The position numbers were made by a program, and so were the translations under genes. The notes under the pieces are model-generated. The model saw nothing but the letters and a program-made list of their open reading frames with translations, had not been told where the DNA came from and ran no database searches. From the NCBI GenBank assembly GCA_004321905.1, contig SCQF01000014.1:567-64566 (forward strand): DNA of 64,000 nucleotides, read 5' to 3'. Shown piece after piece: positions 3,087 to 63,774 of the stretch (positions are counted from its first letter, which is position 1; the number at the start of each line of letters is the position of its first letter). Origin of the DNA: Verrucomicrobiota bacterium (GTDB lineage Bacteria > Verrucomicrobiota > Kiritimatiellia > CAIQIC01).

Positions 3087-3133
3087 TTCCAAGGTTTGGA
3101 AAAACCGCACTCCGCCTTTTCCAAGCCTTGGAA
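3087..3133. repeat. dyad doublet
   Basis: TTCCAAGGTTTGGAA-N17-TTCCAAGCCTTGGAA. Lies 3 nt after the DAHP synthase stop and 13 nt before the tyrA start. Confidence 0.9.
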
Positions 3134-3136
3134 AAG

Positions 3137-4174
3137 TCAGCCCACTTTTCGTCCCAGCACCTGCGCGACGCGATGAAGTTCGTCCATCATACGCAAAAAT
3201 GTTTTCGGCAACAGCGCCTGCGAACCATCGGACAGGGCTTCTTCGGGATTCGGGTGGATTTCCACCATGACGCCATCGGCGCCGGCGGCGACCGCCGCGC
3301 GCGCCATCGGCACCACCAAATCCCAGTGACCTGTGCCGTGGCTCGGATCGGCGATCACCGGCAAATGACTCTCGCGTTTGAGCACCGGCACGGCGGCGAG
3401 GTCGAGCGTATTGCGCGTCATCGGCTCGAACGTGCGAATACCGCGTTCGCAGAGGATGACCTCGTGATTGCCCTCGCTCATCACATATTCGGCGCTCATC
3501 AGTAGCTCTTCGATCGTGTTCGCCAAGCCGCGCTTGATCATCACTGGCTTGTGCAACTTGCCGATTTCCTTGAGCAGCGTGAAATTTTGCGTGTTGCGCG
3601 CGCCGACCTGCAAGATATCGGCCACGGCGGCCACGGCCTCAAGATCGCGCACGTCCATGACCTCGGTGATCACATGGATGCCGACTTTCGCGCGCGCTTC
3701 GGCCAGCAGCCGCAGTCCTGCGTAACCCATGCCTTGGAATGAGTAGGGCGAGGTGCGTGGCTTGAAGGCGCCGGCGCGCAGAATTTTGCCGCCAGCCTTC
3801 TTCACCAGCCGCGCGATATCGAGCAACATCTCCCGGCTCTCGATGGAACACGGCCCGGCCATGACGACCACTTCCGGCCCGCCGATAACCACCGGGCGTC
3901 CACCCTTTTTGATCGGCGCAAGTCGAATCTGCGTACGACCGATGCGGGCCTCGGCGGCGGCAAGTTTGTAGGGCTTGAGCACCGCCAGCACGGACTCCAC
4001 GCCCGGCAGCATATCCAGCGGTTTGGAGCGGATTTCGGTTTCGTCGCCGATCAATCCGATGATCGTGCGTTCCACGCCGCGGCTGACGTTGGCCTTGAGA
4101 CCCCACGCGCGTGCCGAGGCCAAAATATGTTCGACCTGTTTTTCCGTCGCGCTTTTTTGCAGAACGAGAATCAT
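3137..4174 (-). CDS. 3-deoxy-7-phosphoheptulonate (DAHP) synthase, class I-beta, with N-terminal regulatory extension
   Basis: 345 aa. Core motifs GPCSIES, GAFKPRTSPYSFQG and ADPSHG. The roughly 80-aa N-terminal extension resembles Thermotoga-type enzymes. Confidence 0.8.
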   Translation of the reverse strand: MILVLQKSATEKQVEHILASARAWGLKANVSRGVERTIIGLIGDETEIRSKPLDMLPGVESVLAVLKPYKLAAAEARIGRTQIRLAPIKKGGRPVVIGGPEVVVMAGPCSIESREMLLDIARLVKKAGGKILRAGAFKPRTSPYSFQGMGYAGLRLLAEARAKVGIHVITEVMDVRDLEAVAAVADILQVGARNTQNFTLLKEIGKLHKPVMIKRGLANTIEELLMSAEYVMSEGNHEVILCERGIRTFEPMTRNTLDLAAVPVLKRESHLPVIADPSHGTGHWDLVVPMARAAVAAGADGVMVEIHPNPEEALSDGSQALLPKTFLRMMDELHRVAQVLGRKVG

Positions 4175-4204
4175 ATTTTCTTTCTAAATTTTCGAACCGC
4201 ACAT

Positions 4205-4258
4205 GGTAGGGACGGCTCTCCGAGCTGTCTGCGGCGCTCGCGGCGCGAGCGCCCTACC
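4205..4258. repeat. composite palindromic element bracketed by GGTAGGG...CCCTACC
   Basis: Two internal hairpins, GACGGCTC-TCC-GAGCTGTC and GGCGCTCGC-GGC-GCGAGCGCC. Lies between the hisC stop and the DAHP synthase start. Confidence 0.7.
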
Positions 4259-61021: not shown

Positions 61022-61768
61022 ATGAAAGCAATGATTTTAGCCGCAGGAAAAGGAACGCGCTTATATCCGCTGACTTCGGCCTTACCCAAGCCCATGTTAC
61101 CAATAGCCGGCGAACCGGTATTGCACCACATCTTACGTTGGTTACGTCGGTACGGAATTCAGCAGGTGGCGATCAACTTGCACCACCACGCAGACGCCAT
61201 CCGGCAGGATCTTGGGACCGGAAAATGCTTCGGGGTACAAATTCGTTATTCAGAAGAAAAGCACCCCTTAGGAACAGCCGGGGGCGTGAAGCGTATCGCG
61301 GATTTCTTCGATGATTCGTTGCTTGTGATTTATGGTGACGTGTTGACTGACCTTGATCTGGGTGTGCTTGTGGCTTTTCATCGAGCACAAGGCGACGGCT
61401 TGTCCCACGCAACGCTAACACTTGATCGCCGTCCTGATGCGGCACAATGTGGCATGGTTGAATTGCGGACTGACGACCGCATTGTTCGCTTCGCCGAGAA
61501 ACCAAATACCACCGAGATTCGGTCACCCTGGGTAAATTCCGGCATCATGGTGCTCGACCGTGCGCTTTTGGATTTATTACCCAGTGACCAGCCATATGAT
61601 TTTGGCCGGGAAGCGTTCCCCGCATGGCTCACGCGTGGGATTCCCCTGTTCGGATGGCGACTCCCCGACTCGGCATACTTGATTGACATGGGCACCCCGG
61701 AAAAATACGCTCAAGCCAATCGCGACTGGCCGGAGCGACTCCAAAGAATTTCGGGTGGTAAAAATTAA
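61022..61768 (+). CDS. sugar-1-phosphate nucleotidyltransferase
   Basis: MKAMILAAGKGTRLYPLTSALPKPMLPI. GTG 61019 is also a possible start. Confidence 0.75.
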   Translation: MKAMILAAGKGTRLYPLTSALPKPMLPIAGEPVLHHILRWLRRYGIQQVAINLHHHADAIRQDLGTGKCFGVQIRYSEEKHPLGTAGGVKRIADFFDDSLLVIYGDVLTDLDLGVLVAFHRAQGDGLSHATLTLDRRPDAAQCGMVELRTDDRIVRFAEKPNTTEIRSPWVNSGIMVLDRALLDLLPSDQPYDFGREAFPAWLTRGIPLFGWRLPDSAYLIDMGTPEKYAQANRDWPERLQRISGGKN

Positions 61769-62748
61769 TGAAAATCATTGTAACTGGCGGCGCAGGATTC
61801 ATCGGAAGCGTAGTTACAGAATTGCTCTGTGATCAAGGACACGAAGTTTTAGTCTGGGACAATCTGGCCAACGGGCACCGTTCCGCGGTAGATACGCGCG
61901 CCCAATTCCAGTGGATTGATCTACTGGATACCCCTGCAATTCGGGCGGGCATGTCAACTTTTCGTCCTGCAGCCGTGGTTCATCTGGCAGCCGAAGCCCT
62001 GATTGATGTGTCCATGCGCGACCCCGGACGTTTCTACCGCGCCAATCTGGTGGGTGGCATTCACCTGCTTGACGCCATGATGGAGGCCGGAGTGAAGCGG
62101 CTCGTTTTTTCCTCAACCGCCGCAACCTACGGCCAGCCGGATCGAACGCCCATCACCGAAGACATGGCCGGTCGTCCCTGCAACTCCTACGGCGAATCGA
62201 AATGGGCCTTTGAGCGCGCGTTGGCTTGGTATCAGACCGCGCACGGCCTGCGCCATATCTCGCTCCGCTACTTCAATGCCTGCGGGGCCACCACCACTCA
62301 CGGCGAGGACCACCGTCCAGAAACTCACATCATTCCACTGCTATTTGCCACCGCGCTTGGTCAACACCCGGTTTTCCAGCTTTTCGGCACCGACCGCGCC
62401 ACACCCGACGGCACCTGTATCCGCGATTATGTTCATGTTGTGGATATTGCCCGTGCACATCTATGCGCCTTGGAAAAAATGGATGTCACAGAGCCTGCCG
62501 CAGTCAACCTCGGTCTTGGCCATGGTTATTCCAATCGCCAAGTGATTGAGATGGTCAAACAGGTCACAGATCTGCCTCTACGAGTCGAACCTGCACCACG
62601 GCGGCCGGGCGACCCTGACATACTGATTGCCGCTTCCGAGCGCGCGCGGAGCGTCTTGGGTTGGATACCGCAGTATCCCGATCTGGAAGTCATGGTCACC
62701 TCTGCCTGGGCTTGGCGAAAGGCTCATCCGGAGGGTTACACCTCATGA
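61768..62748 (+). CDS. galE: UDP-glucose 4-epimerase
   Basis: 326 aa. VTGGAGFIGS, YGESK and FGTDRATPDGTCIRDYVHVVD motifs. Confidence 0.8.
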   Translation: MKIIVTGGAGFIGSVVTELLCDQGHEVLVWDNLANGHRSAVDTRAQFQWIDLLDTPAIRAGMSTFRPAAVVHLAAEALIDVSMRDPGRFYRANLVGGIHLLDAMMEAGVKRLVFSSTAATYGQPDRTPITEDMAGRPCNSYGESKWAFERALAWYQTAHGLRHISLRYFNACGATTTHGEDHRPETHIIPLLFATALGQHPVFQLFGTDRATPDGTCIRDYVHVVDIARAHLCALEKMDVTEPAAVNLGLGHGYSNRQVIEMVKQVTDLPLRVEPAPRRPGDPDILIAASERARSVLGWIPQYPDLEVMVTSAWAWRKAHPEGYTS

Positions 62749-63725
62749 TTATCACCCGCACCCCATTGCGTGTCAGCTTTGCTGGTGGTGGAACCGACTT
62801 ACGCGCATTCTATGGGCGAGAACGCGGCGCAGTGTTAAGCACAGCAATCAATAAGTACATTTATATCACCGTCAACCGGAAGTTCGATCAGAAAGTGCGC
62901 GCCAGTTATTCCGTGACGGAGATCGTGGAACGCGCGGACGATCTCAAACACGAACTAATCCGTGAAGCTCTCAAACTGGTCGGCCTTTCCGGTGGCGTCG
63001 AGATCACTTCTATCTCTGATGTGCCATCACAAGGCACCGGCTTGGGGTCTTCAAGTAGTTACACCGTCGGCCTGCTCAACGCACTCTACGCCTTCACGGG
63101 CCAACTGGTCAGCGCTGAACGGCTCGCGCGCGAAGCCTGCCAAATCGAAATCGAAATTTGCGGCAAACCCATCGGTAAGCAGGATCAATATATTGCCGCC
63201 TATGGCGGCTTGCAGCATATCCAGTTCAATTCGGATGAATCCGTTTTTGTGGATCCCATTCCGGCCGGTGGCGAGATACGGACCCAACTCCAACAAAATC
63301 TGTTGATGCTATACACCGGCGTCACCCGCTCAGCCAATGACGTTTTGGGCGAACAACGGAAGAACACCGAGCAAAATGGCGCGGCCATGGCCGGTTTGCG
63401 CCAAATGTGCACGCTGGCCGATCAACTCCGCGCCGCGCTTTGCGCCGGCCAACTCGATGGCTTTGGCGAAATACTGCATACTGGCTGGATGCTCAAACGC
63501 ACGCTGGCCACCGGTATCAGTAACCCCGCCATTGATGGTTGGTACGACACCGCGCGCCGCCATGGTGCGTTGGGCGGAAAATTACTCGGGGCGGGCGGCG
63601 GCGGCTTCCTGCTACTCTACGCGCATCCCGACCGACAAGCCGCCATTTGTCGGGCACTATCAGATCTGCGCCCCATACCGTTCTGCTTTGAACCGCAGGG
63701 TAGTAAAATCATTTTCATCGAGTAA
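62745..63725 (+). CDS. GHMP sugar kinase (HddA-like, second copy)
   Basis: ORF trimmed to ATG 62745 (ATGA overlap). MIITRTPLRVSFAGGGTDL, GLGSSSS and GKQDQY motifs. Confidence 0.65.
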   Translation: MIITRTPLRVSFAGGGTDLRAFYGRERGAVLSTAINKYIYITVNRKFDQKVRASYSVTEIVERADDLKHELIREALKLVGLSGGVEITSISDVPSQGTGLGSSSSYTVGLLNALYAFTGQLVSAERLAREACQIEIEICGKPIGKQDQYIAAYGGLQHIQFNSDESVFVDPIPAGGEIRTQLQQNLLMLYTGVTRSANDVLGEQRKNTEQNGAAMAGLRQMCTLADQLRAALCAGQLDGFGEILHTGWMLKRTLATGISNPAIDGWYDTARRHGALGGKLLGAGGGGFLLLYAHPDRQAAICRALSDLRPIPFCFEPQGSKIIFIE

Positions 63726-63727
63726 CT

Positions 63728-63774
63728 TTCCAAGCATTGGAAGTAGCACCGGCGGGCCTTTCCAAACCTTGGAA
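63728..63774. repeat. dyad doublet
   Basis: TTCCAAGCATTGGAA-N17-TTCCAAACCTTGGAA. Begins 2 nt after a stop and ends 12 nt before the next start. Confidence 0.9.

Follow-up and report, generated by a model that had tools for sequence, protein, structure and literature searches.

Short repeats that saturate whole genomes, such as repetitive extragenic palindromes (REPs), uptake signals and HIP1, are among the oldest unexplained features of bacterial chromosomes. Uptake sequences can reach about one copy per kb and differ as dialects between families; A/T-rich flanks that are less conserved surround a near-perfect core, copies build up in situ, and foreign DNA contains few of them. Pairs of NrdR boxes keep a three-turn spacing of 31-32 bp. 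Dimers of Lrp-type regulators bind 13-17-bp inverted repeats that form clusters two or three turns apart centre to centre, and their oligomers wrap about 100 bp around three dimers (PMC2995911). HIP1 of cyanobacteria (GCGATCGC) is conserved at orthologous positions within and between genes, which indicates selection rather than replenishment (PMC5861425), and a chromosome-level function has been suspected for it (PMC5861425; PMC4390886). Here, we describe a palindromic motif, TTCCAA-N3-TTGGAA, which recurs in short arrays along a 64,000-nt stretch of DNA from a Verrucomicrobiota bacterium of the class Kiritimatiellia (GCA_004321905.1, contig SCQF01000014.1, positions 567 to 64,566; the whole stretch is referred to as the window). 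Among the iterated palindromes that saturate genomes, where we place the motif, HIP1 comes nearest, as both are spread through a clade and kept at orthologous sites; the motif lacks the defining features of REPs with their REP-associated tyrosine transposases (RAYTs), miniature inverted-repeat transposable elements (MITEs), uptake sequences, arrays of clustered regularly interspaced short palindromic repeats (CRISPR) and terminators. It is distinguished by whole-turn phasing, by arrays of abutting units with unrelated spacers and by half-sites that are constant across the class. With moderate confidence, we read its copies as phased double-stranded recognition sites for a putative dyad-symmetric, oligomerising protein in part of Kiritimatiellia.

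Exact copies of the motif numbered 27 in the window, as compared to 0.01 expected from dinucleotide-preserving shuffles. When up to two arm mismatches were allowed, 41 matches were found and 39 were taken as credible copies; the two set aside (4182 and 23505) are both isolated and probably represent chance matches or relics. The 39 copies form 14 doublets, 2 triplets and 5 solos. A preliminary description, made from the letters of the window alone, had reported 38 copies in 15 doublets, one triplet and five solos, with a spacer of 17 nt in 15 of 17 gaps and of 16 nt in the other two. Its picture of a dyad that saturates the window with rigidly spaced doublets is borne out, but the numbers had to be corrected: neighbouring cores start 32 nt apart (17-nt spacer) in 16 of 18 cases and 31 nt apart in the remaining two (15837 and 44167). 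Window cores are flanked by a T-run and an A-run, as had been described, and their spacers are indeed unrelated between loci. Even within arrays, adjacent spacers show an identity of 0.425 as compared to 0.39 for random pairs, which argues against array growth by recent tandem duplication. We also confirmed the core at 21072 (TTCCAG-AGT-CTGGAA), in which the arms are changed at mirror positions and the dyad is kept, and the lack of copies in an AT-richer islet at 5447-7819.

The centre of the core reads G-S-C in the window lineage, hence the core is a 7+1+7 palindrome around a single central base, and its "orientation" means only which base, G or C, is central. This bears on the earlier proposal that partner cores, with GGY in one centre and RCC in the other, are inverted relative to each other. 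Within the window the central base does alternate in 13 of 15 neighbour pairs, but outside it we counted 101 alternating pairs and 122 with the same base. The statement that the core is free of stop codons in all six frames has a similar reach, as it holds for the centres of the window lineage but not for the TGA/TCA centre found elsewhere, which is itself a stop. Regarding gene context, 29 of the 39 cores lie in the ~3.6 kb of intergenic DNA (~8 per kb) and 10 in the ~60 kb of genic DNA (0.17 per kb). The intergenic density is thus ~49-fold higher, and the intergenic placement described earlier applies to the 29 cores but not to the 10 that are inside reading frames.

The comparative data consist of 2-22-kb pieces of metagenome-assembled genomes (MAGs) or metagenome contigs, which are designated here by locus numbers (L). 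A scan of one genome per species with the exact doublet (24 specified bases) yielded at least 110 loci, with about 35 assemblies among the matches listed; the MAGs concerned are labeled Kiritimatiellia, Kiritimatiellales, Tichowtungia, 'Lentisphaerae', Verrucomicrobiota or 'uncultured bacterium'. Further motif-bearing loci (L114, L115, L116, L120, and L123) were reached through orthologous proteins, and the motif is also borne by the L127/L131 lineage, in which dapF shares only 56-59% identity with the window gene. The arms were found in at least 36 species-level Kiritimatiellia assemblies, and the cultured Tichowtungia aerotolerans (CP047593.1; L202, 2704206-2726242) carries 12 cores, 6 of them exact, in 22 kb. 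No credible copies were present in ~70 loci of dapF relatives at 55% identity or below (~600 kb), Pontiella sulfatireligans had no exact copy, and a viral collection of 2.9 million contigs gave 2 matches. The collections held no relative of the window organism above ~92% amino-acid identity. The preliminary description had recognised no described family, and in agreement with this we found no published description of the motif, or of any Kiritimatiellia palindrome, in the searchable full-text literature.

Rather than being flat, the distribution of neighbour distances in the pooled loci has a sharp peak at 31-33 nt. It comprises 205 distances of 32 nt, 44 of 31 nt, and 8 of 33 nt (257 in total). 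The loci were found through the exact 32-nt doublet, which inflates the 32-nt count but does not affect the 31- and 33-nt classes or the absence of other spacings. Only 15 further distances below 160 bp were seen (17, 18, 21, 21, 22, 41, 41, 42, 52, 62, 63, 64, 75, 83, and 136), and these cluster on multiples of 10.5 bp with a mean phase near zero (Rayleigh R 0.72, p ~4e-4). This sample is small, as are those of the nine double mutants and the three transfer RNA (tRNA) genes considered below. Three of the odd spacings (62-64) are probably two steps of 32 nt with a degenerate middle core.

Arrays in the pooled set hold one to five cores each. The six-base arms are constant in all lineages, while the centre, flanks, and spacers differ between them. 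In the window group the centre is GGC, GCC, GGT, or ACC, the period 32 or 31 nt, and the flanks TTTT/AAAA. In the MAG CAIVKH, 156 of 166 cores have a TGA/TCA centre, the period is 32 or 33 nt, and flanks of AAAT/ATTT are followed by GCG. Other lineages (for example, JAOSKE and JBDHQM) show a variable centre, a period of 32 or 31 nt, and AC/GT flanks. The consensus is a 7+1+7 palindrome with weakly conserved flanks, first A/T-rich and then G/C-rich, and its conservation is graded, being near-perfect in the core, 45-60% across the 7-8 nt of the flanks, and absent beyond. In CAIVKH the flanks make up most of the "spacer", so that the unit measures ~29-31 bp and the arrays consist of abutting units. 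Thus, the 32-bp period with a free spacer that had been proposed holds generally, but in this one lineage the spacer is mostly two weakly conserved extended flanks. Flank positions show no site-by-site covariation, and the centre pair covaries only between lineages. Arrays occupy tandem, divergent, and convergent gaps in 65, 18, and 17% of cases as compared to a background of 67, 16, and 17%; gene prediction for the pooled analysis used a codon-bias caller of our own, with uncertain start codons. The central base on the sense strand was C in 113 cores and G in 111, and single changes that keep a G.U pair fell on the sense strand in 5 cases and on the antisense strand in 11. All-against-all clustering of 699 open reading frames (ORFs) from 110 loci and the window revealed no recurrent neighbour gene beside the arrays.

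Between the two explanations left open by the preliminary description, a protein-recognised site fits best, given the invariant arms in at least 36 assemblies, the helical phasing, and the lack of a transcript-strand bias. Phasing by helical turns is a property of the duplex and would be meaningless for RNA, and palindromy up to a single central base is something that no hairpin loop can use. The duplex reading was taken as primary. What was observed is the anatomy of the motif, its phasing and conservation, its change by substitution at one intragenic site, its lack of strand bias, and its spread across the clade; that a protein binds it, does so cooperatively, and acts at the level of the chromosome is inferred. 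Each putative dimer would read two invariant 6-bp half-sites, TTCCAA and TTGGAA, with centres 9 bp apart, and would read the centre and the A/T-rich flanks more weakly and with lineage-specific preferences. Neighbouring sites lie whole helical turns apart, nearly always three (31-33 bp), and the protein would oligomerise along one face of the helix. Such sites would arise and persist where they are through base substitution, maintained by either selection or a recognition-dependent drive. Since encoding a 15-bp palindrome within a gene is costly, they would gather between genes, and would be encoded inside genes where gaps are lacking. The likely role would be genome-wide nucleoid organisation or the marking of gene boundaries, and transcription might be affected too by those sites that happen to be ~62 bp upstream of a promoter start.

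The closest known match for this geometry appears to be that of Lrp/AsnC-type regulators (feast/famine regulatory proteins, FFRPs), which likewise use one inverted repeat per dimer and helically aligned clusters. The motif is a 15-bp palindrome of 6-3-6 layout in arrays of one to five with a 32-bp period, the 31-33-bp spacing is dominant, and spacings of 21-22 and 41-42 bp also occur. Lrp sites, in contrast, are degenerate with an A/T-rich centre and occur near promoters in numbers of tens to hundreds, while copies of the motif are near-perfect, have a G/C or TSA centre, are present in every type of gap and inside genes, and probably number in the thousands.

Comparison of orthologous loci indicates that the copies are old and vertically inherited, with cores that persist in place while the spacers randomise. 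The doublet at 3087 is shared with L120 (86.5% nucleotide identity overall), where 15 of 17 spacer positions are identical, which is the background level, and with L114 (~78% identity in genes), where both cores are kept while the inner spacer is close to random. L112 and L113 lack this doublet. Both the window (9330) and L114 have a core after the GHMP-kinase stop, though the downstream neighbour differs. In the motif-free L113, a degenerate, relic-like TTTTCCAAACTCGGAAG is found at the place that matches the doublet at 25284.

Two doublets inside a TIGR03790-family gene are conserved as DNA in both L115 (76% amino-acid identity) and L116 (63%). The third-codon positions of their arms are identical in 14 of 15 and 15 of 15 cases, as compared to 60-63% of four-fold-type third positions elsewhere in the same gene. 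The motif-free L117 homologue (56%) has CTCCAAGGCCTGGAC at intragenic site 1 (45066) and aligns there without a gap, thus this site changed by substitution, not by insertion; more distant homologues also align at the intragenic site without a large indel. None of the codons involved is rare in the genome (CAA 46%, GAA 62%, and AAA 53% of their families; TTG 24% of Leu codons). We therefore dropped an argument based on rare codons, and the case for constraint at the DNA level rests on conservation, not codon usage. The earlier view that the motif is not a recently amplified MITE agrees with the unique spacers, with the orthologous doublets at 86% and ~78% identity, whose comparison between relatives had been proposed together with it, and with this gap-free alignment.

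Two side observations concern copies inside genes. In the TIGR03790-family protein, a 10-residue insertion (CPPKLERRWE), absent from the aligned homologues, lies right after the second core of intragenic site 1 (44990-45066). In L127 (7256-9280; contig Ga0307990_1001065), the helix-hairpin-helix region of a gene for an NAD-dependent DNA ligase contains four cores in phase (32/31/32 nt). The peptides that these encode (FPNIGK, VQALEK, GPIVGK, and FQTLE) are conserved as protein even in the motif-poor Pontiella, hence the array is weak evidence, and the ligase protein's own periodicity may have pre-adapted the site.

Several results weigh against phased protein-binding sites. Among nine two-mismatch cores anchored by a neighbour at 31-33 nt, five carry Watson-Crick compensated mirror changes as compared to 3-6% expected; this is what base-pairing predicts, not what independent half-sites would give, and the duplex reading leaves it unexplained. 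The window encodes no candidate binding protein, and ~1.1 Mb of related loci contained no Lrp-like gene, which is a weak test for a single-copy gene. The 12 arm positions are perfect in most copies and thus more uniform than ordinary sites of regulators or nucleoid proteins; such uniformity is more like that of uptake signals or copied elements. In the T. aerotolerans sample, 9 of 12 cores are inside genes and mostly solo, with neighbour spacings of 22 and 41 nt and none of 32 nt. Four loci about as close to the window as the motif-bearers (L112, L113, L117, and L122) are free of copies over 9-22 kb each; an organiser on which the host depends would hardly vanish so readily from close relatives. 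These four loci also contain no alternative repeat in place of the motif, and a search for relics revealed no enrichment in L112 and L113 and a weak enrichment in L117. As for an influence on transcription, the spacing between doublets and tRNA promoters seen in the window does not recur for tRNAs of other genomes, and pooled distances to start codons show only a weak bump at 55-69 nt. Last, the perfect sites, the motif-free lineages, and the solo genic cores of T. aerotolerans are fitted about as well by a drive signal.

Such a signal, which we consider rather unlikely, would serve uptake or recombination and be kept by molecular drive, in the manner of the DNA uptake sequences (DUS) of Neisseria, the uptake signal sequences (USS) of Pasteurellaceae and possibly HIP1. 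A machine would prefer palindrome-bearing DNA, and copies would gather by point mutation and biased uptake or repair and decay once the machine is lost. This would agree with a clade-wide motif in lineage dialects, with near-perfect arms, with change by substitution, in coding DNA too, at one intragenic site, with mostly intragenic, solo copies in T. aerotolerans, with complete loss from some lineages, with absence from the restriction-modification islet, and with near-absence from the viral contigs. HIP1, a comparable iterated palindrome, is conserved by selection (PMC5861425), and a preprint reports that it raises transformation efficiency (10.1101/2024.09.10.611283). However, known uptake signals are asymmetric 9-12-mers that lie largely in genes and keep no fixed distance from their neighbours, while the motif is palindromic and concentrated between genes in the window. 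Moreover, bias alone predicts neither the rigid 31-33-bp period nor whole-turn phasing. The resemblance to HIP1 is closer. Both are clade-wide, hyper-abundant short palindromes that are absent or rare in some members; the motif is over-represented across its clade (27 against 0.01 in the window; at least 36 assemblies), its orthologous sites are conserved beyond neutral expectation within and between genes, and for neither is there evidence of an RNA or gene-regulatory role. HIP1 differs in that it is 8 bp long, contains methyltransferase target sites, is found within and between reading frames, and shows periodicity only at 10-90 kb, whereas the motif spans 15-19 bp, is enriched between genes in the window, and forms arrays at 31-33 bp and other whole turns.

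The second option in the preliminary description was a REP or REPIN (a pair of REPs in inverted orientation with a conserved spacer, located in transcribed tandem or convergent gaps). We find it improbable that the motif is a REP-like or other non-autonomous mobile hairpin, spread by a RAYT-type or other enzyme that acts on single-stranded DNA. The likeness to REPs, bacterial interspersed mosaic elements (BIMEs), and REPINs is nonetheless considerable: all are abundant, palindromic, mostly extragenic, often paired, sometimes intragenic, and foldable into larger hairpins, here a 19-bp stem of -16 to -29 kcal/mol per doublet. Compensated mirror changes keep the dyad, copies are homogeneous within lineages with dialects between them and a patchy presence among relatives, and orthologous element-free gaps are shorter (24 nt and an overlap, as compared to 63 nt here). 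Most REPs, however, carry a GTAG or CGTC tag and are located predominantly between tandem and convergent genes, the criterion being an unpaired tetranucleotide tag at the end of an imperfect, usually G+C-rich palindrome of 20-40 bp (PMC3733652). The core of the motif is a fully symmetric 15-19-bp palindrome flanked by T-runs and A-runs, without either tag and without polarity, and it is equally common between divergent genes (18% as compared to 16% in the background). Its spacers are unique, neighbour orientation is random outside the window, and the motif stays the same throughout a bacterial class. Its doublets are orthologous and old, an intragenic site aligns with no insertion, conservation fades outwards from the core where a copied unit would be evenly conserved, and no gene family recurs beside the arrays in 110 loci.

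A RAYT gene flanked by the units had been suggested as a check on this explanation. A tblastn search for RAYT and IS200 transposases, covering ~1 Mb of motif-bearing loci, followed by comparison of the match with PDB and NCBIfam, detected a single RAYT-like gene in a motif-rich genome (L051, 3649-4245; MAG CAIVKH bin-1020). It matches PDB 4ER8 (E 4.9e-7) and NCBIfam NF047646 REP_Tyr_transpos (E 1.3e-19, below the model's cutoff). The gene is flanked by GTAGTCAAGCCCGTGAGGGCTG repeats, which are canonical REPs of the GTAG-AGCCC..GGGCT type, not TTCCAA cores. Together with the missing tag, the background share of divergent gaps, and the random orientation elsewhere, this different REP speaks against the REP/REPIN option. 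As a separate observation, the RAYT-like gene and its GTAG REPs sit between hsdM and an hsdS-like ORF of a type I restriction-modification system, and a tandem repeat with a period of ~60 nt lies beyond it (L051 ~4540-4700). Copies of a MITE would have their whole internal sequence in common, and insertion would be visible as presence/absence with a target-site duplication. Here, only the core is shared among copies and intragenic site 1 aligns gap-free with a motif-free homologue, which speaks against a MITE.

The folding of the doublets raises the question of an RNA element, in which solo 8-bp stems or the 19-bp inter-core stem would act in RNA processing, in stabilising 3' ends, or as terminators. 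Many arrays lie inside operons and start 2-15 nt past a stop codon, and the doublet stem is predicted at -16 to -18 kcal/mol for DNA and -24 to -29.5 kcal/mol for RNA, with RNA fold z-scores of -5.6 to -7.2. In the window, G/C alternation in 13 of 15 pairs makes the long stem perfect. Yet a perfect inter-core stem needs this alternation and is therefore confined to the window (13:2), so that the long hairpin was rejected as a general feature, and an extension of the hairpin into the flanks was rejected for want of site-by-site covariation. A solo hairpin is weak (-5.7 kcal/mol), and in lineages with a TSA centre the flanks are unpaired and a 6-7-bp A/T-rich stem is left. There is no sense-strand bias in the central base or in G.U-compatible variants, divergent gaps hold arrays equally often, and helical phasing has no meaning for RNA. 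Intrinsic terminators, which have a G+C-rich stem followed by a U-tract and lie at gene ends only, were rejected, since the T-run and A-run are part of the stem with no U-tract after it, the cores were not flagged by a terminator scan, and the motif also lies in divergent gaps; the scan of 20001-40000 showed no excess of terminator-like sites. Rfam matches in the window are limited to three tRNAs, which leaves no known RNA family. Taken with these results, we regard an RNA element as quite improbable.

The three tRNA genes of the window bear on yet another reading. At all three, a doublet ends 61-63 nt upstream, and between doublet and gene lies a sigma-70-like TTGCCA or TTGCGC, a 17-nt spacer, and a TAnnnT-like box; for tRNA-Tyr, the sequence reads TTGCCA-N17-TAAAAC. 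Relative to the predicted start, the nearest core lies at about -61 to -64, followed by another at about -93. In three protein genes the start codon is preceded by an array edge at 61-65 nt, and in two cases a core arm is followed 16-17 nt on by a -10-like box right before a start codon. The motif could then be primarily a promoter part or upstream activator, with the outward arm TTGGAA taking the place of a -35-like box, or with the array serving as an upstream activating sequence around -62 and -94, but this is very unlikely. Convergent gaps hold arrays equally often, many arrays are 11-35 nt from the next start codon with no room for a promoter, the pooled flanks show neither a -10-like box nor a start codon at a fixed distance from array edges, and copies occur inside genes too. 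As the tRNA-upstream pattern is not seen at the tRNAs of other genomes and is weak in the pooled data, it was treated as secondary.

CRISPR arrays combine direct repeats of 23-50 bp with ~30-bp spacers taken from foreign DNA, next to a leader and in most cases cas genes; the motif shares with them a constant repeat and spacer period, unrelated spacers, and a palindromic repeat, but its repeat has 15 bp and no polarity, its spacers of 17 nt drift by substitution at orthologous loci, its arrays are orthologous between genomes, and its one to five units are scattered over most gaps with no leader or cas context.

If the copies are phased sites for an oligomerising protein, a tentative extension is that part of the class may use this highly specific protein and thousands of phased boxes as genome-wide punctuation, for nucleoid organisation, insulation of transcription units, or marking of DNA as self for uptake or recombination. 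Equally tentatively, boxes would then stand at most gene boundaries, and in coding sequence where no gap is available, and would be gained or lost whole between lineages. If true, a novel type of sequence-specific architecture would be added to those of bacterial chromosomes. There is a real chance that the motif marks a new chromosome-organising system. Constant half-sites, phasing, intragenic conservation of DNA, and motif-free relatives are clean properties that make the function testable. The gene content of motif-bearing as compared to motif-free genomes should nominate the partner protein, and because the cultured T. aerotolerans, which has a complete genome, carries the motif, binding and deletion experiments are feasible.

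Positions of the motif arrays and tRNA genes in the window. Periods are 32 nt unless stated otherwise.
Feature	Position	Context
Doublet (cores 3087 and 3119)	3087..3133	fills the 63-nt gap from the DAHP synthase stop (3137) to the prephenate dehydrogenase start (3073)
Doublet	7860..7906	ends 61 nt upstream of tRNA-Tyr
tRNA-Tyr	7968-8053	hidden inside a long ORF of the raw list
Solo	9330..9344	convergent gap; 24 nt past GHMP kinase stop, 2 nt from the end of the GH106 tail
Solo	12404..12418	3 nt past the GH106 12422-15817 stop; the next GH106 starts 65 nt later
Doublet, 31-nt period	15837..15882	one mismatch in second core
Doublet	17111..17157	between stop 17165 and start 17099
Doublet, first core compensated	21072..21118	65 nt downstream of tRNA-Asp, 34 nt upstream of GH106 start
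tRNA-Asp (minus)	21184-21260	hidden inside a long ORF of the raw list
Doublet	21323..21369	2 nt past ABC transporter stop; ends 62 nt upstream of tRNA-Asp
Doublet	25284..25330	between dUTPase stop (25275) and phosphoglucomutase start (25349)
Solo	29186..29200	15 nt past the stop of an omptin-family gene
Doublet	32165..32211	divergent gap between dapF (start 32129) and tRNA-Leu (32275); ends 63 nt upstream of the tRNA
tRNA-Leu	32275-32358	hidden inside a long ORF of the raw list
Solo	34078..34092	within 3' tail of HPPK reading frame (34030-34539, minus)
Triplet, 32 + 32 nt	34560..34638	between stop 34652 and start 34539
Doublet	37743..37789	between stop 37818 and start 37719
Doublet	40524..40570	divergent gap; starts 40462 (minus) and 40600 (plus)
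Intragenic doublet, 31-nt period	44167..44212	FQGLEK....FPTLGK in TIGR03790-family gene 43715-45694 (minus)
Intragenic doublet	45066..45112	FQGLEK....FSKSW in TIGR03790-family gene 43715-45694 (minus)
Doublet, one mismatch per core	50854..50900	C-terminal tail of DUF2304 gene, past its Pfam domain
Triplet	56200..56278	first core within the last codons of an SDR gene (..GFQGLEK*), third within the first codons of a GFO/IDH/MocA gene
Solo	59084..59098	within GHMP-kinase gene (..GGFQTLEI..); may be a coding-sequence coincidence
Doublet	63728..63774	2 nt past stop (63725), 14 nt before next start

The window is a segment of a polysaccharide degrader's chromosome with ~60% G+C. It encodes an aromatic amino-acid operon, three GH106 rhamnosidase paralogues, phosphoglucomutases, an exosortase/EpsI cluster, dTDP-rhamnose and heptose sugar genes, and the three tRNAs. 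The core-free islet at 5447-7819 (~52-57% G+C) is probably an acquired restriction-modification module. Its ORF 5619-6272 encodes an NspV-type restriction enzyme, as judged from the PF27258 match of an identical gene in L111, while ORF 6203-7792 gave only a weak methyltransferase-domain match.

The three large GH106 genes form a paralogous cluster at 9.3-21 kb. The paralogue at 9462-12338 (minus) stops in frame, yet homology to the C termini of the other two continues over the 38 codons that follow, as far as 9347 (the 9347-9464 tail matches 12422-15817 and 17165-21037; ..LPSGLLGPVTLQA..). The in-frame stop at 9462 is either a nonsense mutation, a pseudogene, or a sequencing error. At 34652-37719 are two tandem GFO/IDH/MocA paralogues with ~79% nucleotide identity (repeat families D5-D7), one of which has a TAT-signal match. 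Between an ABC transporter and a thioredoxin-reductase-like gene, a stretch of ~700 nt (23169-23862) contains only short ORFs without a Pfam match, and the degenerate core-like TCCCAATCCATGGAA at 23505 lies within it.

Gene models in the window lineage need care over fusion and over-extension. Because the cores of this lineage hold no stop codon, ORFs run through them and gene callers can fuse or over-extend genes. Several stop-to-stop ORFs are over-extended or fused through arrays in this way (for example, 2189-3124, 7869-9305, 15912-17345, and 36233-37780), and 7869-9305 is not a single gene, as the doublet and the kinase are separated by tRNA-Tyr. Of the 215 pooled arrays, 39 seemed to be "inside" long ORFs, and most of these were judged to be artefacts of such run-through.

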